Positions 3,558 through 58,481 are shown, numbered from the stretch's first letter. The stretch: 59,935 nucleotides of DNA from Candidatus Parcubacteria bacterium (GCA_021731405.1 JAKFXN010000006.1:1-59935), one strand, 5' to 3'. Program-made: numbers and translations. The notes: generated by a model not told the origin, from the sequence alone.

Positions 3558-3752
3558 TACAAATCAGACCTAACCCGACAGCTTTTGCTGGCGGTATGGT
3601 CGCAAATACCGTCCAAAGTAAACAACTCCTAATCAGAGCTACTTTGGACGGTCATATCGGGAAACTGGTATGGGTATTGCCTCACGGGGCGTATCGGCCT
3701 GGTTAGGAGCTTTTTGCTACCTGACCGACCACTCTAAATCCGTCCAAAAAAT
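3558..3752 (+). ncRNA. Candidate structured leader/ncRNA with H-type pseudoknot
   Basis: 13-bp stem 3608-20/3640-52; its loop 3626-36 pairs with 3699-3709; GAAA-capped and G-U-rich hairpins lie in between. Confidence 0.55.
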
Positions 3753-4475
3753 ATGAATACACAAAACCCCTCCCCCGAGGAGGTCGCTTTACTTATAAGT
3801 AAGCGTCTTAAAAAGTTCTGGGGTTACGGTAACCTCAAAGGCTCAGTTTGGCTTATCGGTATGGAAGAAGGTATCGGAGCTGACGAAGACTTTCCCATTA
3901 CTCGCTTTGAATCAACAAGTGGTAAGGAAGTAGTAGACATCACCTACAATACTGCCGAAGACCATAATCGTTGGTTTAAAACTGGAGCCGCAACTCAACG
4001 CACGTGGCGACCATTAATTTTTATACTGCTTTATCAAAAGCTCGGTCGTGTCCCGACACTCGAAGAGATTCGTGACTACCAAATCAATCACTTTGGTCGA
4101 AGAAATTCAGACCACGCCATTTTAGAATTAATGCCCTTACCCGCACGTTCACTCAAAGCTTCCGATTGGATATACAGTGACGTACAACTTAAAGGACTTA
4201 AGAATCGCAAGGAATATCTGGCGACATATAAACCAGAGCGAGTAAAACTTCTGCAAGCACTTATAGAAAAACACCAACCGAAGTTGGTGCTATTCTATTC
4301 ACGAAGCTATCTCCCTGACTGGCAATCAATTGTTCCTAAAACACTTAAGGAAGTGATTCCTGAGAAACTGCATATCGCTAAGGTTGGTAATACTAACTAC
4401 GCTGTGACCGCTCATCCTGTCAGTCATGGACTATCGACCAAAGACTGGGAAATGATTGCTCGCAAAGTACTTTAG
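3753..4475 (+). CDS. Hypothetical protein, probable uracil-DNA-glycosylase-superfamily fold
   Basis: FWGYGNLKGSVWLIGMEEG (motif-A-like), LELMPLPA, C-terminal HPVSHG (motif-B-like); 240 aa. Confidence 0.5.
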   Translation: MNTQNPSPEEVALLISKRLKKFWGYGNLKGSVWLIGMEEGIGADEDFPITRFESTSGKEVVDITYNTAEDHNRWFKTGAATQRTWRPLIFILLYQKLGRVPTLEEIRDYQINHFGRRNSDHAILELMPLPARSLKASDWIYSDVQLKGLKNRKEYLATYKPERVKLLQALIEKHQPKLVLFYSRSYLPDWQSIVPKTLKEVIPEKLHIAKVGNTNYAVTAHPVSHGLSTKDWEMIARKVL

Positions 4476-4837
4476 TTGTCATCAAGATCATCGACATAAA
4501 CCATATCAATATTCGTAATGACTGCGGGCTGATTGGTTTTGAACGACATCTTCTCTCTTGGCTTGATATACGACTTTTTGTTGTTATTAAGCCAGTATTC
4601 AATCGCTCGCAGATTACCGTTGTTAATGTGAGCAATCAGCTTACTCTCAGCTAAGTCGCTAACTGAATTAACGCCGTGCTGCATTGCCTCTTCAACTGCC
4701 TGCTTGAACTCAGAATCATCCTTGAGCCACGTATAGAACGTATTACGCGCAATCCCGACTCTCTCACAGGCAATTGAAACATTTGGCACACTACGGAGCT
4801 GTTCGAGTATCGGTGCTTGTTTGCGGGATTTCTTCAT
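4472..4837 (-). CDS. Phage-type HTH protein (phBC6A51 / terminase-small-subunit-like)
   Basis: NVSIACERVGIARNTFYTWLKDDSEF...DLAESKL...GNLRAIEYWL. Confidence 0.7.
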   Translation of the reverse strand: MKKSRKQAPILEQLRSVPNVSIACERVGIARNTFYTWLKDDSEFKQAVEEAMQHGVNSVSDLAESKLIAHINNGNLRAIEYWLNNNKKSYIKPREKMSFKTNQPAVITNIDMVYVDDLDDN

Positions 4838-6095
4838 CTGGTTTGATGACGACTGCCTTTTGTCCTGTTAATGCTTCAAAGCGTTTGATAGTCAGGTCAC
4901 AAAACGCTGGTTCAAGTTCTACTGCAAACACTAGTCGCTTGAGTCCTTCAGCCGCTATAAGCGTACTGCCCGAACCAGAGAAGCTATCAAGAATGATTTG
5001 TCCTTGCTTAGTACAACGTCGAATCGCTTTCTCATACAGCTCAGGTGGTTTCATCGTACTGTGTTCGTACTCAGAGCCCGGGAGACGCTTTATGAGCCAT
5101 AAATCAAGATTGTTGAGCATTTCGTTACCCGTACCAGCTTCAAGATTCATCACTTCATTGAGCTTGGTATGTGGCTTTGTAAGAGCTGGCTTACCTTTGA
5201 CTCCATACACGCACGGTTCGTAGCATTTATTGAAAGCCACACCTGGGGTCGGATTGTGTCCGTTTTTAACCCACAGACAGACTCGCTTGTTTTGAATACC
5301 AAGCTCGTGATACAGCGTCTGAATTGCCCATATATACACTTGGTCGCACCAGTAAAAGACGTGAGTGTCTGGCTTGGTGAATGGTAGAGCGGCTACCATG
5401 CTGGCTCGAAGAAACGCAACGTACTCATTATCCGATTTACTGTCGTTCACAGTTCCGCCGTACGACTGTTTGCCACCAATACCTTTGTTGTAGTCAATGG
5501 AAATGTTATAGATTGGATCACTCATGATCATATCAGCTCGTTCATCACCACATAGGCGAGCAATCGTTTCTGGTTTAGTGGAGTCACCACAGATAAGGCG
5601 GTGTTCTCCGAGCAAGATGAGGTCACCCAGCTTCGTGACTGGCTTCTTATCTTTTTTCTTCGGTTCAACAAAATCAAAGGCTTCTTGTTTTGGCTTTCTA
5701 TCCCAAAGTCCATCAAGTGCTTTGTAGTCGAAGCCGACATCGAGGAGTAAAGTGAGTTCAATTGCTTCAAGCTTCTCGTAGTCAAACTCACCAGTGTTCT
5801 TATTTAAACGTAAATTGAGTTCCTTTTCTCGCTCAACGTCATTCATCGTAATGAAGATAACTGGCACCTCTTTGTACCCAAGTGACTTTGCGACTTCAAG
5901 GCGGAAGTGTCCTGCAATCAGAATACTTTCCCGCCCTTTGGCGTTATTACATATAAGCGGGTCAACCATACCGAATCGTTCGATACTGGTCTTGAGTTGT
6001 TCTGTCTGCTCCTTCGTGTGTTTGCGGGGGTTGTACTCATTGGGGTTAATGGTTTCAATGGGTACGTAGGTTACGGCAAGAGAATCGGGTTTCAT
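4791..6095 (-). CDS. ParB/Srx N-terminal domain fused to an N4/N6 DNA methyltransferase (beta class)
   Basis: YNPRKH...GMVDPL...AGHFRL ParB domain; SDPIY (motif IV variant); HSTMKP; ILDSFSGSGST SAM-binding motif. Confidence 0.9.
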   Translation of the reverse strand: MKPDSLAVTYVPIETINPNEYNPRKHTKEQTEQLKTSIERFGMVDPLICNNAKGRESILIAGHFRLEVAKSLGYKEVPVIFITMNDVEREKELNLRLNKNTGEFDYEKLEAIELTLLLDVGFDYKALDGLWDRKPKQEAFDFVEPKKKDKKPVTKLGDLILLGEHRLICGDSTKPETIARLCGDERADMIMSDPIYNISIDYNKGIGGKQSYGGTVNDSKSDNEYVAFLRASMVAALPFTKPDTHVFYWCDQVYIWAIQTLYHELGIQNKRVCLWVKNGHNPTPGVAFNKCYEPCVYGVKGKPALTKPHTKLNEVMNLEAGTGNEMLNNLDLWLIKRLPGSEYEHSTMKPPELYEKAIRRCTKQGQIILDSFSGSGSTLIAAEGLKRLVFAVELEPAFCDLTIKRFEALTGQKAVVIKPDEEIPQTSTDTRTAP

Positions 6096-13951: not shown

Positions 13952-14539
13952 ATGATTCGTTCACTTGAAGGAACTGTCTCCTTTTTAGGGGAAAACAATG
14001 TGGTTGTCGTTGTGTATGGTGTTGGATACCTTGTCTATACCCCCACCGCTCGGGGGCAATTTGTGCCTGGGGAGACTGTTTTTTTGCATACCTATCAAGT
14101 GGTTCGAGAAACAGCCCTTGATTTATATGGTTTTTTAGACAAAGACGAGCTTACGTTTTTTGAATTACTCCTTGATGTCCCTAAAATTGGCCCTAAGTCA
14201 GCCCTCCAAATTTTGTGCCAGGCGGACGTTTTTCTACTGGGAACTGCAATTATGGAACAGGATCCTGAGCACCTCTCAAAAATGTCGGGGATTGGTAAAA
14301 AAACTGCCAGTAATCTCGTATCTCATCTCGCCGGAAAGGTAGATAATCTTTTTACAGTAGACAGCCTCAAACACCCTACCCAGACGCAGCTTTCAGAGGC
14401 TCAAACAGACGCCATTGACGCGCTTATTACCCTTGGCTACGACCCACGCGAGGCTCGTACGTATGTACTCAAGGAAGATAAAAATGAAGATACGAAGACC
14501 TTAGTACAGGCTGTTTTGAAGCATATACCAATTCCGTAA
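13952..14539 (+). CDS. ruvA: Holliday junction branch migration protein RuvA
   Basis: GVGYLV, LYGF, VPKIGPKSAL, GIGKKTA, DALITLGY. Confidence 0.95.
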   Translation: MIRSLEGTVSFLGENNVVVVVYGVGYLVYTPTARGQFVPGETVFLHTYQVVRETALDLYGFLDKDELTFFELLLDVPKIGPKSALQILCQADVFLLGTAIMEQDPEHLSKMSGIGKKTASNLVSHLAGKVDNLFTVDSLKHPTQTQLSEAQTDAIDALITLGYDPREARTYVLKEDKNEDTKTLVQAVLKHIPIP

Positions 14540-18316: not shown

Positions 18317-18389
18317 GCGCCTATAGCTCAGCCGGTAGAGCAGCTCCCTTTTAAGGAGAAGGTCCCAGGTTCGATCCCTGGTGGGCGCA
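18317..18389 (+). tRNA. tRNA-Lys (anticodon TTT), CCA not encoded
   Basis: Cloverleaf: GCGCCTA/TGGGCGC acceptor, GCTC/GAGC D-stem, CT-TTT-AA loop, CCAGG-TTCGATC-CCTGG T-arm. Confidence 0.97.
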
Positions 18390-23222: not shown

Positions 23223-24962
23223 ATGAATATGGTTCAATTTAATGATAAAGCCACCAATACGAGAATCGACGACTTGCGTCGGGAGGAGGAGGAAAAACTC
23301 GTTCAAGCCCTCGCTCCTCAGTATGGTTTTGAATATATAAATCTCCGTGGATACACCATCAATCCAGAAGGCCTTGGTATTTTGCCCGAAAGTAAAGCAC
23401 GAGCTGCGCGCGCGGTAGTGTTTGATGTTACACACAACCTTATCTCAGTCGCTGTCCAACAACCCAACAACCCTACTACTCACCAAATACTTGAGTCCCT
23501 ACAAAACGACCGTCAGGCTATAAAGCTCTATATGTGTTCCACTGGTAGCCTAGAGCATGCTTGGAAGCGCTACGCAGACATCGTGAGTTCTACTGCTGAA
23601 AAGAAGGGGGTGTTTGATATTGATGCCAATGAAGTTAGAAACTTTGCTGACCTCATCAAAAAGAAAGAGGACGTCACCGCCTTGATGCAAAAAATTGGTA
23701 CCGTCAATAACTCACGTCGGATCACTGAGACTCTTGAGCTTATGCTCGCGGGGGCACTCGGACTCCGCGCGTCTGACATCCACATTGAGCCGGAACAAAC
23801 AGTTGTCCGAATGCGCTACCGACTTGATGGGGTGCTCCATGACATTTTTGATATCGATCGGTATATCTATGAGCGTTTAATGTCACGACTCAAACTTCTC
23901 TCTGGTATGACCCTCAATAAGCGACAAGAAGCACAGGATGGTCGGTTCACCTTTGAAGTGGCTGACCAAGAGATTGATGTTCGTTCTTCAATTATCCCTG
24001 GTGCGGCTGGAGAGTCGATGGTGATGCGTCTTTTGGATTCGGGAGTAGCTGGATACACACTTGATAAAATAAGCCTCAACGACCGTTTACGTGAAGTGAT
24101 GGCTACAGAACTTAAAAAACCAAACGGACTCATTATCACCACTGGCCCAACCGGTTCAGGAAAAACAACTGCGCTCTATGCCTTTTTGCGTGCCACCCAC
24201 ACTGAAGGGGTGAAAATTATTACCATTGAAAATCCGGTTGAGTATAAAATTGAAGGCATCGTCCAGACACAGACCGGCGACGACTACACCTTCTCTTCTG
24301 GACTGCGCGCAATTTTACGTCAGGACCCTGACGTTATTATGGTGGGAGAAATCCGCGACCGCGAAGTAGCTGAGACCGCTATCCACGCCGCCCAAACTGG
24401 TCACTTGGTATTTTCTACTCTGCACGCCAACAGTGCCGTCGCTGCTTTTACCAGACTTATGGACCTCGGCGTTGATCAGCGAGTACTCGGAAGTTCCATA
24501 AACGTCATTTTGGGACAGCGACTTGTTCGTAAATTATGTGACACTTGTAAAGAGGCGTACGTAGCTTCCGCTGAAGAGATTCGTATTATTTCAGATATTA
24601 TAAAAGATCATCCGAGCAAGCCGACTCTCGCCACTCCTCTTTCCCTCTACAAAGCAGTCGGTTGTAGTGTTTGTGGAGCTACTGGTTTTAAGGGACGAAT
24701 CGGAATCTTTGAAGCTATTTTAATGGACGAAGCGGTTGAGGAAGCTGTTCTCCGAGATCCGCGTGAACACATTATTCTTGAAGCGGCTGGCTCACAAAAC
24801 ATCCCAACCATGCTCGAAGACGGAATAGAAAAAGTCATGACGGGGGCAACTTCACTAGCTGAACTCGAACGTGTAATTGAAATCCCCCTCACCGTTGTAC
24901 AAAAAAACGAGCCAAAAGACCCGTCTGATACCGATGCCTTTCTTGCTCATGTAGTGAACTAA
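23223..24962 (+). CDS. pilB: PilB/GspE-family pilus assembly ATPase
   Basis: ASDIHIEP, QDGRF, GPTGSGKTT, ENPVEY, LRQDPDVIMVGEIRD, CxxC...CxxC Zn site. Confidence 0.9.
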   Translation: MNMVQFNDKATNTRIDDLRREEEEKLVQALAPQYGFEYINLRGYTINPEGLGILPESKARAARAVVFDVTHNLISVAVQQPNNPTTHQILESLQNDRQAIKLYMCSTGSLEHAWKRYADIVSSTAEKKGVFDIDANEVRNFADLIKKKEDVTALMQKIGTVNNSRRITETLELMLAGALGLRASDIHIEPEQTVVRMRYRLDGVLHDIFDIDRYIYERLMSRLKLLSGMTLNKRQEAQDGRFTFEVADQEIDVRSSIIPGAAGESMVMRLLDSGVAGYTLDKISLNDRLREVMATELKKPNGLIITTGPTGSGKTTALYAFLRATHTEGVKIITIENPVEYKIEGIVQTQTGDDYTFSSGLRAILRQDPDVIMVGEIRDREVAETAIHAAQTGHLVFSTLHANSAVAAFTRLMDLGVDQRVLGSSINVILGQRLVRKLCDTCKEAYVASAEEIRIISDIIKDHPSKPTLATPLSLYKAVGCSVCGATGFKGRIGIFEAILMDEAVEEAVLRDPREHIILEAAGSQNIPTMLEDGIEKVMTGATSLAELERVIEIPLTVVQKNEPKDPSDTDAFLAHVVN

Positions 24963-24980
24963 AGTTGAGCTTAGTCTCAG

Positions 24981-25017
24981 ATATAAAAAACAGCTCTGGT
25001 CAAGCTGTTTTTTATAT
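24981..25017. terminator. Bidirectional terminator
   Basis: 15-bp inverted repeat ATATAAAAAACAGCT/AGCTGTTTTTTATAT, 7-nt loop. Confidence 0.85.
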
Positions 25018-25255
25018 TGACTATGCTATAGTCGAAAAGTAATTAGTTCCTTTATAGGAGAGTTCCAGAATATAACTCTCTAAGCAAGCTTCCGCATTGA
25101 AAGTGAACACCGCGCTAAGGAAGTTTGCAGCACTTTCACTCAAGGTGAACGCCACAAACCCCTCGCAACGTGCTCAGGTTGCTTAGAGAGTTATGCTCTG
25201 GAAATGGTCAGAAAATGATCAGGGTGCCAAATGAGGCACAAGAGAACGCTATACA
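25018..25255 (-). ncRNA. Candidate ~240-270-nt non-coding RNA of unknown class
   Basis: Lies between a consensus promoter and a terminator with no ORF; 16+7-bp long stem 25063-87/25179-203 enclosing two hairpins. Confidence 0.6.
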
Positions 25256-25261
25256 ATTTCT

Positions 25262-25290
25262 ATATTAGCACAGATATAATTTTTTGTCAA
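25262..25290 (-). promoter_or_regulatory. Strong sigma70-like promoter pointing into the ORF-less region
   Basis: TTGACA (25290-85), 17 nt, TAATAT (25267-62) preceded by TG. Confidence 0.75.
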
Positions 25291-25381
25291 TACTATGCCC
25301 TTCTTTGGGGTTTTTTGTTGTCCGCCTAGCCTTTCTGGCCTAAGGCTACGCACCAAGCGTAAATTTGCTAGAATGAAGGGC

Positions 25382-26386
25382 ATGGAAAAAAATACTCAAC
25401 CGAGAACCTTCACCCGTGATGAAGGCGGAAACCTTGACCAAACCCTTCGTCCCCAGACCTGGGACGAATATATTGGCCAAACAAAAATAAAAGAGAATTT
25501 GCGTATTCTCCTTACTGCCGCCAAAGAACGCGGACACGCGGCTGAGCATATTCTTCTCTATGGTCCACCAGGGCTTGGAAAAACGACCCTTGCTCATCTT
25601 GTTGCCAAAACACTTGGTACAAACATGCGCACCACTTCTGGACCAGCGATAGAACGAGTCGGGGATCTGGCTGCTATTTTGACTAACCTCTCACCAGGAG
25701 ATGTCCTGTTCATCGACGAGATTCACCGCCTCTCAAAGAGCATTGAAGAGGTACTTTACCCTGCCATGGAATCAGGGGTGCTTGATATTATTATTGGAAA
25801 AGGTCCTTCTGCTCGGACGGTACAGCTCGACCTCCCTCCCTTTACCCTGGTCGCAGCCACTACCCGCATTTCAATGCTTTCAGCCCCACTTCGTTCACGT
25901 TTTTCAGGCGGTACCTTTAGACTGGATTTTTATGACGAAGAAGAAATTGCCACGATTCTTTCTCATTCAGCAGAAGTCTTGGGGGTAAGTACAACACGAG
26001 AAATCATGAGTAGTATTGCTGGCCGCTGCAGGGCCACGCCACGTACGGCAAACTACCTCCTCAAACGTTGCCGCGATATGGCACAACTTGAAGGTGGAGC
26101 ACTTACGCTTGAAGTAGTTCAAAAGACATTTGCCCTCCTTGAAATAGACAACCTTGGTCTCGGAAGACCAGACCGAAGTGTACTTGAAGCTATTTTATAT
26201 AAGTTTAGTGGCGGGCCAGTAGGCCTGAATACTATTGCAGCTGCCACTGGTGAAGAACAGGCCACTATTGAAGACGTGCTTGAACCATACCTCATTCGCC
26301 TTGGCCTTTTAGAGCGCACTCCCCGTGGACGAGTTACGAGCCCAAAAGCCATCACCCATATACAAGATTACGAACAGACAAAATAA
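25382..26386 (+). CDS. ruvB: Holliday junction helicase RuvB
   Basis: [38 protein letters not shown]; start moved to 25382 (TAGAAT 7 nt upstream). Confidence 0.97.
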
Positions 26387-31629: not shown

Positions 31630-32727
31630 CTAGCGATTCATCGGCATTACCAAATACCTAAGAGAGTTATCTGAAACACCAGTTATTACAAGCGGGCGAC
31701 CAATACCAGCAAAATTAAGAACAAGACTATCATCACTAATATGTGCCAACGGTTCAATTACATACTGTTGATTAAAGTTTAGAGATAACTCTTCCCCGTT
31801 AATAACCGCTGCAATTGTATCGGTAATATGCCCAACTTCATTATTTTGAGAGGATATAGTAACCGCCTTCTCAGTGAGAGTAAGCGAGACTTGCATAAAT
31901 TTATTTAAAAATACAGAAGTTTTCTTAAAAGCGTTTTGTAAATCATTTTTAAGGAGGGTCACTTTAGTAACATATTCCTTTGGGATAATTTGTTCATAGT
32001 CAGGGAAAGAACCAGATACTAAGCGTGAAGTGATATATACTCCTTCAGTTTTAAAATCTAAAGCACATTGATTTTCGGTTACAGTGAGCTCAGGGTCAGA
32101 TTGTAAAAGATCACAAATTCGAGCCAATTCAATAGCGTTTTTTTGTGGCACTAAAAATGAGTGATTTAATATAACTCCTTTTTGTGGCACTGTTTTTTCC
32201 ATTAGTCTAAATGAGTCTGTAGATACAAAAGTAAGAGTATGTTCTTTTTTTTGTTGAATAAAGACACTTCCAAGCTCTGGTTTTATTGAAGATTGTGAGG
32301 CAGCAAAAGCGGCGGTCTTTATTCCTAAAGCAAATAAAGAGCGATTAATTAAAATACTCTCTCCTTCTAAGGTGTGTATATTAGGAAACTCGTCAGCGGA
32401 AATAGATTTTATTGAAGTGTTGGTTTGTTTTGACTCTATTAAAAGTACATTTTCTTCAACCCGTAAAGTTACTTCTGATTCGTTTATATATTGAATACTT
32501 TGTAAAAAAGTAGAAGCAGGAATAGCGATTGTACCTATTTCATTTATTCTTCCAGGTACTATTACTTCAATACTTAACTCTAAGTTTGTGGCTTTAAATA
32601 CAATTTCTTTTTCTGTAACAGTAATAAGTGCACACTGGAGCACAGGGAGTGTAACATGCTTGGTACTAATTTTTGTGAGTAACTCAAGTGCCTTAATAAG
32701 TTGTGAGTGTGGGACTATTATTTCCAT
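31630..32727 (-). CDS. dnaN: DNA polymerase III beta clamp
   Basis: KATNLE, VSTDSFRL, SRLVSGSFPDY, NFNQQY, LVMPM. Confidence 0.97.
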   Translation of the reverse strand: MEIIVPHSQLIKALELLTKISTKHVTLPVLQCALITVTEKEIVFKATNLELSIEVIVPGRINEIGTIAIPASTFLQSIQYINESEVTLRVEENVLLIESKQTNTSIKSISADEFPNIHTLEGESILINRSLFALGIKTAAFAASQSSIKPELGSVFIQQKKEHTLTFVSTDSFRLMEKTVPQKGVILNHSFLVPQKNAIELARICDLLQSDPELTVTENQCALDFKTEGVYITSRLVSGSFPDYEQIIPKEYVTKVTLLKNDLQNAFKKTSVFLNKFMQVSLTLTEKAVTISSQNNEVGHITDTIAAVINGEELSLNFNQQYVIEPLAHISDDSLVLNFAGIGRPLVITGVSDNSLRYLVMPMNR

Positions 32728-33036
32728 ATAAAAACTATTTTACTCTCTACTATTAGGGTTGTGGAAGTGTGCATATCTTTAAAATAGTGTTGTATTACGT
32801 ATTGTATAAGGTTTTTTAATCAACACTTACTACTTCATTTCCTGTTAATAGTGATTTTTTAGTTGGGGATGACTACGGTAGTTTGTTTTGGTTGTGTATA
32901 ACATAACCACATTACCCCCACTTTTATGACTTCTTTTTAGTAAAAACTTTAAACTGTAAGAAGGTTATCTACATAGCTTATCATAAGATATGTACAGAGA
33001 TGCTCCTTAAATAAAAAACTCCTTCGAAGGAGTTTT
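32728..33036. other. Probable oriC (dnaA-dnaN spacer)
   Basis: AT-rich; DnaA-box match TTATACACA (32893-901, minus), TTATCTACA (32965-73) and several 2-mismatch boxes. Confidence 0.7.
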
Positions 33037-33051
33037 TTATTTAAGGAGCAT
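33000..33051. terminator. 52-bp perfect palindrome overlapping the dnaA stop (terminator)
   Basis: ATGCTCCTTAAATAAAAAACTCCTTC|GAAGGAGTTTTTTATTTAAGGAGCAT, no spacer. Confidence 0.85.
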
Positions 33052-34422
33052 TCGTATCTGAGTAATTTCCTCTTCAAGCTCTGAGTTGGATTTAAGTTCC
33101 GCTTTAATCTTTTCACAAGAGTGAATAACGGTAGTGTGGTCTCTCCCCCCTAGTTTTTTACCAATTGCTGGGTATGAAACTTGGAAATCTTCGCGCAGAA
33201 TATACATAATAATCTGTCGCGGCTTCACAATCTCTTTTCTACGCGTCTTCTCATAAATACTAGCTTGATCAATATCAAAGTAGCGAGCCACCTTATCAAC
33301 CACATCTGAGACAGCGAGAGTTTTTCTTGGTCTTGAGCTGTTTTTAATAATTGCCTTTACTTCATCAAGTGAGAGGGTGCGGCCGAGGAGTTGAGATTGA
33401 CACATGATGGTGTTAAGAGCCCCCTCCAGTTCGCGAATATTCCCTTCAATTGTGTGAGCAAGATGGTCTACCACATCATCTGAAAGAGTAATGCTGTTTT
33501 GCGCCGCTTTTGCCTTCAAAATAGCCGCTCTTGATTCTAGGTCTGGGGCTGGGATATCTACGATCATGCCTTGGGCAAAGCGAGACTGCAAGCGCTCTTC
33601 TAGACCAGAAAGAAGGGCGGGGTGAATGTCGCTTGAGAAAACGATTTGTTTATTGGTGTCATGGAGAGCATTAAAGAGGTGAAATAGCTCTTCTTGTGTT
33701 TTTTCTTTGCTAGCCAAGAACTGTACGTCGTCCATGATAAGTACGTCGTATTGACGGTATTTATCCTTGAAGCTATTAGCGGTACCACTTTGGAGTGAGT
33801 TGAAGTAGTCGACTGCAAAACGCTCACTGGTCACGTAAAATACTTTCTTCCCTTGTTTCTTAACTTGATTCCCTACCGCTTGAATGAGGTGGGTTTTACC
33901 ATGACCAGTTTTACCATAGATGAAGAGTGGATTGTAGGCGATTCCTGGCTTGTCACTAACTGTTTTGGCAGCGGCATGAGCCAGTGCGTTATACGGCCCA
34001 ATAACAAAGTTCTCAAACGAATATTTTGGGTTGAGATTGTCACTTTTGTTGATGTAGTATTCCTCAAGTGGGAGGGCTGCATTTACTGTTTGTGTCTTAC
34101 TCCCTTCACTTCTCCGGTCACTTCGTTGTACTACTTCATATTCAACACTACGAACGTATCCTGAAACGTCGCGCAAAGTCTTAAGAATCATTGATTGAAA
34201 CTTATCTTGCAACCAGTCACGTACAAACACACTTGGTACGGCTAAGGTGGCGGTTCCGTCTTCTAAAGAAAGAATATATGTGTCTCGAAACCAAGTTTTA
34301 AAATTGGCTGGAGTAATAGAGAGTTCAATGTTCACTAGCGCGTCATCCCAAAGCTTTTTAACATCAATATGCTCTGTGCGCACAATGCTGTTTGTTGAAG
34401 AAGGATGTGAGATAGGATTCAT
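33037..34422 (-). CDS. dnaA: Chromosomal replication initiator DnaA
   Basis: NLNPKYSFENFV, YNPLFIYGKTGHGKTHL, DDVQFL, NIRELEGA, GGRDHTTVIH. Confidence 0.98.
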   Translation of the reverse strand: MNPISHPSSTNSIVRTEHIDVKKLWDDALVNIELSITPANFKTWFRDTYILSLEDGTATLAVPSVFVRDWLQDKFQSMILKTLRDVSGYVRSVEYEVVQRSDRRSEGSKTQTVNAALPLEEYYINKSDNLNPKYSFENFVIGPYNALAHAAAKTVSDKPGIAYNPLFIYGKTGHGKTHLIQAVGNQVKKQGKKVFYVTSERFAVDYFNSLQSGTANSFKDKYRQYDVLIMDDVQFLASKEKTQEELFHLFNALHDTNKQIVFSSDIHPALLSGLEERLQSRFAQGMIVDIPAPDLESRAAILKAKAAQNSITLSDDVVDHLAHTIEGNIRELEGALNTIMCQSQLLGRTLSLDEVKAIIKNSSRPRKTLAVSDVVDKVARYFDIDQASIYEKTRRKEIVKPRQIIMYILREDFQVSYPAIGKKLGGRDHTTVIHSCEKIKAELKSNSELEEEITQIRMLLK

Positions 34423-34426
34423 GGCG

Positions 34427-34557
34427 TGTGGAACAATCTAAACAGTAACAAGCATTATACTCTCCTTCAGCCACCTGTAAAATTTTTGGTAAAAATCTAG
34501 AGAAAGGGACCCCTTTTTTGGGTTTAAAAAATGCAACTGTGTATAACCTGTTAATAA
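34427..34557. promoter_or_regulatory. DnaA boxes upstream of dnaA
   Basis: TTATACACA (34538-46, minus), TGTTCCACA (34427-35), TTATTAACA (34549-57). Confidence 0.6.
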
Positions 34558-34785: not shown

Positions 34786-35112
34786 ATGCTTAAAAAAACT
34801 GAGCGATTAAGCCGTTTTGCCTTTTCTATTCATTTTGTAAAAGGTAAAAAGACACACCAAAAATATACCTCCATTATCAGCTCCCCTGCCCCTCACTTTA
34901 AGGCGGCAGTAGTGGTTGGTAAGAAGGTGTCTAAAAAGTCGCCTACCAGAAACAGTATCAAGCGCCGGATCTATGGACTCATCGAAATCGCTCGAAAGGA
35001 GAAAGACGTAACTGGTGTCTATATTGTGATAGCTAAGCCAGAACTGGCCAAGCTCACCAAAAATGCTTTTAAGGAAGCAATTTTAGCAGAATTTGGAGGG
35101 GTGATTAATTAA
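34786..35112 (+). CDS. rnpA: Ribonuclease P protein component
   Basis: MLKKTERL, AAVVVGKKVSKKSPTRNSIKRR; located after rpmH. Confidence 0.88.
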   Translation: MLKKTERLSRFAFSIHFVKGKKTHQKYTSIISSPAPHFKAAVVVGKKVSKKSPTRNSIKRRIYGLIEIARKEKDVTGVYIVIAKPELAKLTKNAFKEAILAEFGGVIN

Positions 35113-57896: not shown

Positions 57897-58481
57897 TTAG
57901 TTTCCTCGCTCTCGGTTTCCGTTGTTGGTCATCTTTTTAATTTGTTTACGGAGCCCTGACTTTTTCTTGCTGGTCTTGTATCCAATGAGAAACTCACTTG
58001 GGTTTTCGTCCATATCGATAAAATCATCTACAACTTCTCGGAGTCTTCCTGAAGCAGAGCGACCAAACGTAATCACCTCTACCTGACAGCCTTGGTTTTT
58101 GACATACTCCACCAGCGGAATAAAATCGCCATCGCCAGTTGCGAGAATAATGGCGTCAACTTTGTTGGCGAGCTTGATGGCGTCAATTGCGAGACCAACA
58201 TCCCAGTCTGCCTTCTTTGCTCCGCCGTAAAATATTTGAAGATCTTTGGTTTTGATTTCGATGCCTACCTTTTCGAGAGCTTCAAAAAAGGGAGCCTCTT
58301 CCCCGCTCTCAGTGTTTACTACGTATGAGAGCGCACGAATGAGTTTGCGATCTCCGAGAGCGGCTTTGACGACGGCAGCGAAGTTTACTTTAGATTTGTA
58401 TAAATTTTTTGCGCTGTGGTAGAGGTTTTGTGTGTCTATCAAAATAGCGACGCGTTGTTCCGGGTGTCGAATTATACCCAT
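57897..58481 (-). CDS. NYN (LabA/DUF88) domain protein
   Basis: ILIDTQNLY, KKADWDVGLAID, LATGDGDFIPLV, ADD-like DDFID. Confidence 0.92.
   Translation of the reverse strand: MGIIRHPEQRVAILIDTQNLYHSAKNLYKSKVNFAAVVKAALGDRKLIRALSYVVNTESGEEAPFFEALEKVGIEIKTKDLQIFYGGAKKADWDVGLAIDAIKLANKVDAIILATGDGDFIPLVEYVKNQGCQVEVITFGRSASGRLREVVDDFIDMDENPSEFLIGYKTSKKKSGLRKQIKKMTNNGNRERGN

Follow-up and report, generated by a model that had tools for sequence, protein, structure and literature searches.

The gap between a PilB/T2SSE-type ATPase gene and ruvB in a Candidatus Parcubacteria bacterium (24962-25382) very probably harbours, on its minus strand, a genuine gene for a structured non-coding RNA. The RNA would be read opposite to ruvB from a near-consensus sigma-70 promoter with an extended −10 element. 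Promoter, terminator, fold and position are kept in about 136 loci with strong covariation, which bears out the transcription unit proposed in an initial annotation of this DNA. The ruvB-linked RNA family appears to be undescribed and is not contained in Rfam 15. We lean moderately towards the following reading as a whole: a new RNA family of Paceibacteria-type CPR bacteria, whose product would be stable, act in trans and bind protein, and whose transcription would in addition interfere with ruvB. All positions refer to the window, that is, the entire stretch of 59,935 nucleotides that was analysed (JAKFXN010000006.1:1-59935).

The CPR bacteria (Patescibacteria) make up a large share of bacterial diversity and have tiny genomes. 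To our knowledge, almost none of their ncRNAs have been characterised experimentally. With a fixed site across a class, a near-perfect promoter and a covarying fold, the RNA described here is very likely important to its hosts. If it is a 6S-type polymerase regulator, it shows how far 6S RNA can diverge; if it is not, a new and abundant RNA-protein particle awaits identification. A ready annotation tool is at hand in R1, the covariance model of the family, and the overlap with the promoter and start codon of ruvB makes for a straightforward, testable example of transcriptional interference in bacteria not yet amenable to genetics. The family should be of interest to RNA biologists and CPR microbiologists alike.

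Promoter, terminator and strand of the RNA gene

The RNA gene faces the convergent PilB-like ATPase gene (23223-24962, plus strand) on one side and diverges from ruvB on the other. The true start of ruvB is at 25382, and yebC and ruvC lie downstream of it; a listed ORF at 25295-26386 is an over-extended version of ruvB. The minus-strand promoter (25290-25262) consists of a −35 element TTGACA (25290-25285), a 17-nt spacer and a −10 element TAATAT (25267-25262). Our scan of the whole window confirmed this initially annotated promoter and added a TG extension at −15/−14 (25270-25269). Only eight sites in the window match the consensus at 10 or more of 12 positions, and among these eight the RNA promoter is the sole site that combines a perfect −35 element, a 17-nt spacer and the TG. 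Two other sites match at 11 of 12 positions and have no TG, namely TTGACA-16-TAAAAT at 58099 (plus strand) and TTTACA-16-TATAAT at 34481 (minus strand), the latter directly upstream of dnaA.

Transcription is predicted to start at around 25256, which gives a minus-strand transcript of about 270 nt up to the terminator. A 5′ leader of about 50 nt (25256-25204) precedes the structured core. It includes the local hairpin GUGCC/GGCAC (25239-25224), which is present in the window as annotated, but neither the sequence nor the length of the leader is conserved in the family, and even the closest relative (L001) carries a different leader. The core is followed by a 3′ tail (25062-25019, minus strand), a feature of a minority of lineages only, which connects it to an intrinsic bidirectional terminator at 25018-24981. 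This terminator comprises an A-run, the hairpin CAGCU/AGCUG and a U-run, and is common to the RNA and the PilB-like gene. These three elements (approximately 25015-24983) lie 21 nt past the stop codon of the convergent PilB-like gene, and folding of both strands gives a hairpin of about 16 bp between A6 and U6, as expected from the bidirectional terminator first proposed. The RNA thus ends in the stable hairpin and U-run of an intrinsic terminator, a description that applies to its 3′ end and not to the whole element.

The region had been described as free of ORFs, and this holds: none of the four small ORFs it contains (32-44 aa) is conserved outside L001, whose DNA is nearly identical. The minus strand folds at −108.6 kcal/mol (z = −8.45) and the plus strand at −96.5 kcal/mol (z = −7.0). 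Over the family, we counted 827 G·U pairs versus 162 A·C mismatches, and the R1 covariance model scores the window at 75.7 bits on the minus strand versus 47.4 bits on the plus strand. The RNA strand is therefore the one opposite to ruvB, in agreement with the original strand assignment. The model search finds a single copy of the RNA in the window. A weak second match on the minus strand at 33006-33046 (21 bits, E 0.004, G+C 0.27) is an AT-rich hairpin in the dnaA-dnaN spacer and most likely due to chance.

Family, synteny and conserved fold

Homologues were found via RuvB in contigs representing one genome per species. The element is located just upstream of ruvB in 19-20 Paceibacteria-type species, including L001 to L018 and L076, and the MAGs that carry it are labelled Kaiserbacteria, Nomurabacteria, Zambryskibacteria, Ryanbacteria, Sungiibacteriota, Paceibacterota and Minisyncoccia. 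It is absent from the Firmicutes, Chloroflexi and three other CPR-labelled loci (L020, L032, L056) examined. A metagenome scan with a pattern built from the conserved inner motifs and the 3′ arm yielded at least 120 stretches, and about 118 of those listed are genuine members. One match (L125), which has neither the 5′ arm nor ruvB, was discarded as a chance hit. Together, the ruvB-found loci and the metagenome matches listed form a family set of 136 loci. As far as sampled, the family is restricted to Paceibacteria-type CPR bacteria, in which the element has been held over a RuvB divergence down to about 60% identity. No copies were found in the viral contigs searched.

The genomic position is rigid. 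Among the matches listed and the ruvB-found loci, ruvB is located divergently upstream in all 128 loci with room for it, the outcome of the synteny search that the initial annotation had called for, and a PilB-like gene lies convergently downstream in 107 of 117. The remaining loci have small membrane-protein genes inserted (for example L084), and the wider synteny to dnaN and dnaA is kept where the contigs extend that far. In L084, a pair of small genes (4044-5103), predicted to encode membrane or secreted proteins, separates the PilB-like gene from the RNA, and the second of them stops 5 nt from the RNA 3′ end; similar insertions occur in some lineages.

The transcription signals are equally widespread among the matches listed and the ruvB-found loci: the sequence TTGAC[A/T]-N16-18-TAnnnT precedes the RNA in 132 of 133 loci, and 127 of those 133 loci carry the TG extension. 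The distance from the end of the −10 element to the extracted core, which starts about 2 nt before helix P1, ranges from 6 to 186 nt with a median of 64 nt. A U-run follows directly after P1 in 89 of 132 loci of the same set, so that in those loci the closing helix would itself be the terminator. The window represents a minority type with a 3′ tail and a separate terminator.

The RNAalifold consensus of an alignment of 131 sequences (A2) comprises a 25-bp helix P1, a 6-bp helix P2, a helix P3 and a side hairpin P4. P1 joins both ends of the conserved core, whereas the 5′ leader and any 3′ tail lie outside it. In the window, the 5′ strand UUCCAGAGCAUAACUCUCUAAGCAA (25203-25179, minus strand) pairs with the 3′ strand UUGCUUAGAGAGUUAUAUUCUGGAA (25087-25063); the stem of 16 and 7 bp that had been noticed at 25063-87/25179-203 is thus the conserved P1. 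After P1 the fold opens into a three- or four-way junction, from which an irregular P2-P3 arm and the small 3′ hairpin P4 emerge. Most members possess a variable hairpin between P1 and P2, which the window copy lacks. P2 of the window is formed by UGAGCAC (25176-25170) and GUGUUCA (25110-25104). P3 of the family consists of AGGA/UCCU, a 1×2 internal loop C/UA, and GUNNUGGU/ACUGNNNC, a segment with a tandem U·G/G·U and an invariant G-C pair, with a variable hairpin on top. The corresponding arm in the window (25163-25118, minus strand) is composed of P3a, P3b and an apical hairpin. According to the model alignment, P3a is AGG/CCU (25163-25161 with 25120-25118) and the apical hairpin is UUCAC-CUUGA-GUGAA (25149-25145 with 25139-25135). 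Between them, P3b GUUUGUGG/CUGCAAAC (25159-25152 with 25130-25123) contains the tandem U·G/G·U and the G-C pair. P4 (CUUUC-AAUGC-GGAAG, 25103-25099 with 25093-25089) abuts the 3′ strand of P1.

The two apical helices of the initial annotation, an 8-bp helix UGAAAGUG/CACUUUCA and a 10-bp G-U-rich hairpin at 25149-71, are not part of this fold. Both form in the window sequence only, and across 131 homologues they are paired at 46.6%, the level of shuffled sequences. The conserved fold pairs the same bases otherwise, in P2, P3, the apical hairpin and P4.

Covariation supports the four helices P1-P4. In the alignment of 131 sequences, 90.6% of the cells are paired versus 76.8% after shuffling, and 39 of 48 pairs have changes on both sides. 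The covariation score of 0.432 compares with 0.186 for shuffled alignments, none of 500 of which reaches it, and with at most 0.153 when the pairing partners are slid. Because the metagenome pattern fixes several motif positions, we repeated the count on the 19 ruvB-found species aligned to the model. This set is paired at 89.4%, again shows double changes in 39 of 48 pairs, and scores 0.588 versus 0.229 for shuffled alignments (0 of 500 reach the score) and at most 0.187 with slid partners. Compensatory changes above the controls are thus found in sequences that were not selected for structure, as is characteristic of a new family of structured ncRNAs.

The helices differ in how they vary. 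In P1, 23 of the 25 pairs have compensatory changes and 93-95% are paired; its inner 13-14 bp are conserved in sequence, whereas the outer part covaries. Every pair of P2 has changed on both sides, as have all five pairs of P4, which is 73-78% paired. The GG/CC of P3a and one G-C pair of P3b are invariant in the 19-species set, and the apical hairpin shows compensatory changes in L001. Loops are variable or of the UUCG/GNRA type, and conservation resides in the helices and internal loops. In the large alignment, AGGAC..YGG, AUCCU and UUAGAG are invariant, in part because the search pattern demanded them; in the ruvB-found set, these motifs are conserved, not invariant.

Relation to ruvB and to the replication origin

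Among the matches listed and the ruvB-found loci, the −35 element of the RNA overlaps an in-frame ATG of ruvB in 99 of 126 cases. The sequence cTTGACAT, which contains the −35 element, is the reverse complement of the ruvB start ATGTCAAg (for example in L003, L007, L081 and L084), so that a single 8-mer serves both the RNA and ruvB. An extended −10 element in the direction of ruvB is present within the RNA leader in 67 of 132 loci of this set. Since the ruvB promoter generally resides inside the RNA unit, collision-type interference and antisense overlap are predicted. In most lineages, the RNA transcription unit overlaps the promoter or start codon of ruvB, which makes interference with ruvB likely.

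In the window, the RNA promoter is located 88 nt from the ruvB ATG. An extended −10-like sequence TGCTATAGT (25024-25032, plus strand) is found within the 3′ tail of the RNA and hence, seen from ruvB, beyond the whole RNA gene. It is kept in the window, in L001 (at 883) and in L002 (at 2618) although the flanks differ, and in L002 it is the sole such motif in the ruvB direction. TGCTATAGT would give rise to an antisense transcript, or else to a 5′ UTR of ruvB, about 350 nt long and complementary to the RNA. A second motif, TGCTAGAAT (25366-25374, plus strand), ends 8 nt before the ruvB ATG at 25382, a position that suggests a leaderless or near-leaderless ruvB mRNA. A terminator-like hairpin with a T-run (25297-25317, plus strand; hairpin 25297-25311) is located just upstream of the −35 element of the RNA, before ruvB.

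In 34 loci (L084, L090, L093, L096, L103, L109, L116 and others), the RNA leader, or 5′ region of ruvB, contains three to four DnaA-box-like direct repeats with a spacing of about 11 nt, for example TTATCAACA, CTATCCACA and TATACACA. After the repeats come ACATTATAGCAT, the antisense of an extended −10 element pointing at ruvB, and a second −10-like sequence, ATAGTATAAT, on the RNA strand. In this clade, DnaA may control ruvB or the RNA.

The RNA gene resides on the leading strand, about 8 kb from dnaA and dnaN. The segment 31630-35112, which spans dnaN (31630-32727, minus strand), dnaA (33037-34422, minus strand) and rnpA (34786-35112, plus strand), is the probable replication origin. The minimum of the cumulative GC skew is found at about 30-33 kb, in a region of low G+C, and 9-mers similar to DnaA boxes occur at 32373-33128 and 34538-34557. 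We therefore dropped the idea that the RNA locus itself is oriC in the window, as dnaA, dnaN, the skew minimum and the DnaA boxes all lie about 8 kb away.

A role of the RNA as a junction binder in place of RuvA was likewise dropped, since a ruvA homologue is present in the window (14084-14458, plus strand), 11 kb from ruvB. Outside the RNA family, 47 loci, mostly from Firmicutes, Chloroflexi and similar groups, have a RuvA-like gene near ruvB; within the locus sequence around ruvB, no RNA-family locus has a RuvA-like match. Near the RNA we found no candidate gene for a partner protein, the neighbours being ruvB, the PilB-like ATPase and small membrane proteins. The window contains no complementarity to the P1 arms beyond chance.

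Resemblance to known RNAs and candidate functions

The suggestion that the RNA may be new was supported by searches of Rfam 15. No family matched at the RNA at gathering threshold across the whole window, none at E ≤ 10 in the 501-nt region and in 200-nt slices of the typical members L088 and L003, and none at E ≤ 1 in 13 homologous loci searched whole. The relaxed matches that did appear are at chance level only (terminator look-alikes and plant microRNA models). In a search for tmRNA, ARAGORN detected only a tRNA-Lys at 18317 in the window. In the literature on ncRNAs and structured RNAs of Patescibacteria and Parcubacteria, we found no description of this RNA.

Public sequence data hold traces of the element. 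DNA runs from drinking water carry the window sequence, and RNA-type libraries from wastewater, mud, rhizosphere and activated sludge carry k-mers of its relatives' RNA. Contigs from RNA libraries cover the RNA of relatives, although such contigs are undirected, assembled and may include DNA; in runs X33 and X40, the RNA is the sole long match. Several of these contigs terminate within a few bases of the P1 3′ end, yet without clean ends, and conserved k-mers break assembled contigs. The contigs thus lend weak support to expression. Together with the consensus promoter, the single copy and the leading-strand site about 8 kb from dnaA/oriC, they favour an abundant RNA of the housekeeping type, which we regard as plausible.

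We propose that the RNA would act in trans as a stable and abundant molecule, through its shape and the binding of protein rather than through base-pairing with targets. Its stability would follow from the pairing of the core ends in a 25-bp helix. As conservation lies in the inner P1 and in the P3 loop with its tandem G·U, with variable loops elsewhere, protein recognition would be favoured over target pairing, and inner P1 and the P3 loop would be the likely recognition surfaces. Processing probably removes the variable leader, and RNase III, cutting within P1 by analogy with the Bacillus scRNA, would be a plausible agent; such a cleavage would explain the sequence-conserved inner 13-14 bp. 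As a counterpoint, sequence conservation of a perfect A-form helix such as inner P1 is unusual for protein recognition and could instead reflect RNase III determinants, alternative pairing or a role at the DNA level. From the anatomy of the locus, firing of the RNA promoter would interfere with ruvB expression.

As to the kind of RNA, we tentatively suggest a housekeeping RNP RNA of a new, Paceibacteria-specific functional class, distinct from 6S, SRP, RNase P, tmRNA and Y RNAs. Such an RNA would be driven by the strong, origin-near promoter, trimmed in the 25-bp helix and coupled to ruvB by face-to-face promoters. A known class that offers itself is 6S RNA, in which case the molecule would mimic an open promoter and sequester sigma-70 RNA polymerase. 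P1 would then take the place of the downstream duplex, the junction that of the bubble and the P2-P3 arm that of the upstream (−10 to −35) DNA, and release would occur through a short product RNA templated from the junction into inner P1. Much in the general architecture is in line with this: both RNAs are free-standing, single-copy and expressed from a strong promoter, here of consensus type, and have about 150-180 nt between their paired ends, with a long closing helix (25 bp here), an asymmetric junction with a 3′-side hairpin, and an irregular distal arm. The P1-to-P1 length is 125-179 nt (median 155), the central junction measures 0-34 nt on its 5′ side (median 15) and 12-30 nt with the hairpin on its 3′ side, and the internal loop conserved in the distal arm lies about 15-20 bp away from the junction. 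The inner 13-14 bp of P1 would moreover suit the length of a product-RNA template, and lineage-specific 6S variants that the main model misses do exist, as exemplified by 6S-Flavo. However, neither the 6S (RF00013) nor the 6S-Flavo model matches at E ≤ 10 in slices of 200-500 nt, and a constant open bubble is lacking. The junction 5′ strand folds into a local hairpin in 63 of 131 members and measures 3 nt or less in 8 of 131, the window included, and P2 and P4 covary as helices. The helices are also conserved in sequence to a greater extent than is usual for 6S RNA, and the 5′ leader varies from 6 to 186 nt. The initial comparison with a 6S-like rod therefore amounts to a likeness in overall shape only; in the window copy, the junction has just 1-2 nt on its 5′ side and hence no open bubble. 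With junction strands folded or almost absent in many members and no model match, we regard 6S identity as doubtful, and the same holds for the RNA polymerase holoenzyme, although it is the most specific candidate partner.

Could the element instead be a purely local device, which throttles ruvB by cis-antisense or transcription interference and insulates the convergent pilB-like operon? Here the promoter would fire across the promoter and 5′ UTR of ruvB, P1 would stop transcription in both directions, and the core would merely stabilise the product. The invariable linkage to ruvB (128 of 128) and the two overlaps described above, of the −35 element with the ruvB ATG (99 of 126) and of a ruvB-direction extended −10 element with the RNA leader (67 of 132), all counted among the matches listed and the ruvB-found loci, are in accordance with such a device. 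So are TGCTATAGT, which in the window, L001 and L002 lies past the entire RNA gene, and the abutment of P1 and its U-run on the stop codon of the convergent gene. A terminator or stabiliser, however, needs no covarying interior with P2, the P3 loop, the tandem G·U and P4; the antisense part, the leader, is the least conserved segment; and in the window, 88 nt separate the RNA promoter from the ruvB ATG, beside which ruvB has its own TGCTAGAAT. A solely local role is unlikely, because it leaves the conserved interior unexplained. It is highly improbable that the region acts on the plus strand as a 5′ leader of ruvB (a riboswitch or attenuator) that starts from TGCTATAGT at 25024 and exerts control at the hairpin and T-run at 25297-25311. 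The conservation of this extended −10 element in three genomes, the terminator-like site just before ruvB and the good fold of the plus strand would suit it, but the G·U to A·C ratio favours the minus strand, the covariance model gives the plus strand 28 bits less, and the minus-strand promoter occurs in 132 of 133 loci among the matches listed and the ruvB-found set. There is, moreover, no room for a plus-strand promoter beyond P1 in most lineages, since the convergent gene ends there. Nor does the RNA serve as a cis-leader in its own direction, where the next gene is convergent (PilB-like or coding for small membrane proteins). A relic or domesticated miniature inverted-repeat element, or a protein-bound DNA palindrome, is hardly credible. 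It would account for 25-bp inverted repeats about 100 bp apart with sequence-conserved inner arms, but a single copy is found per locus, in a fixed place and with a dedicated conserved promoter, and there is no second copy in the 60-kb window and none on viral contigs. Instead of being dispersed, the loci are found at ruvB wherever the contig reaches it (128 of 128 among the matches listed and the ruvB-found loci). Covariation and G·U asymmetry in the internal helices can be explained by selection at the RNA level only, which likewise counts against such an element.

Other known RNAs resemble the ruvB-linked RNA in part. The scRNA of Bacillus, an SRP RNA, is a stable RNA with a long terminal helix, within which it is cut from its precursor by RNase III, and it is encoded by an origin-near gene with a strong promoter. 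The ruvB-linked RNA shares the long terminal helix that pairs the core ends, the origin-near gene and the strong promoter, and processing within the helix is plausible by analogy. Unlike SRP RNA, it has no helix-8 GNAR tetraloop, no AGCA-type symmetric loop and no Rfam SRP match; its conserved P3 loop is C/UA with a tandem G·U, and its tips are variable. The large-SRP-like, two-helix apex of the initial annotation falls away, as it was based on two hairpins that the family does not conserve. With Y RNAs, the partners of Ro60/Rsr, the RNA has in common that its 5′ and 3′ regions form a sequence-conserved stem with a variable distal module. However, this stem is a perfect helix without the bulged Ro-binding motif, Rfam yields no Y RNA or YrlA match, and there is no rsr gene nearby. 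Orphan RNAs such as LOOT and raiA are comparable in being defined by covariation, confined to one lineage and intergenic, with their own promoter and terminator. They differ from the ruvB-linked RNA in fold and sequence, and its rigid linkage to ruvB and the use of the closing helix as terminator are unusual among them. The window itself carries one such orphan structured RNA, a full-length LOOT RNA (RF03000) at 3567-3695 on the plus strand, which scores 75 bits against a gathering threshold of 46.4.
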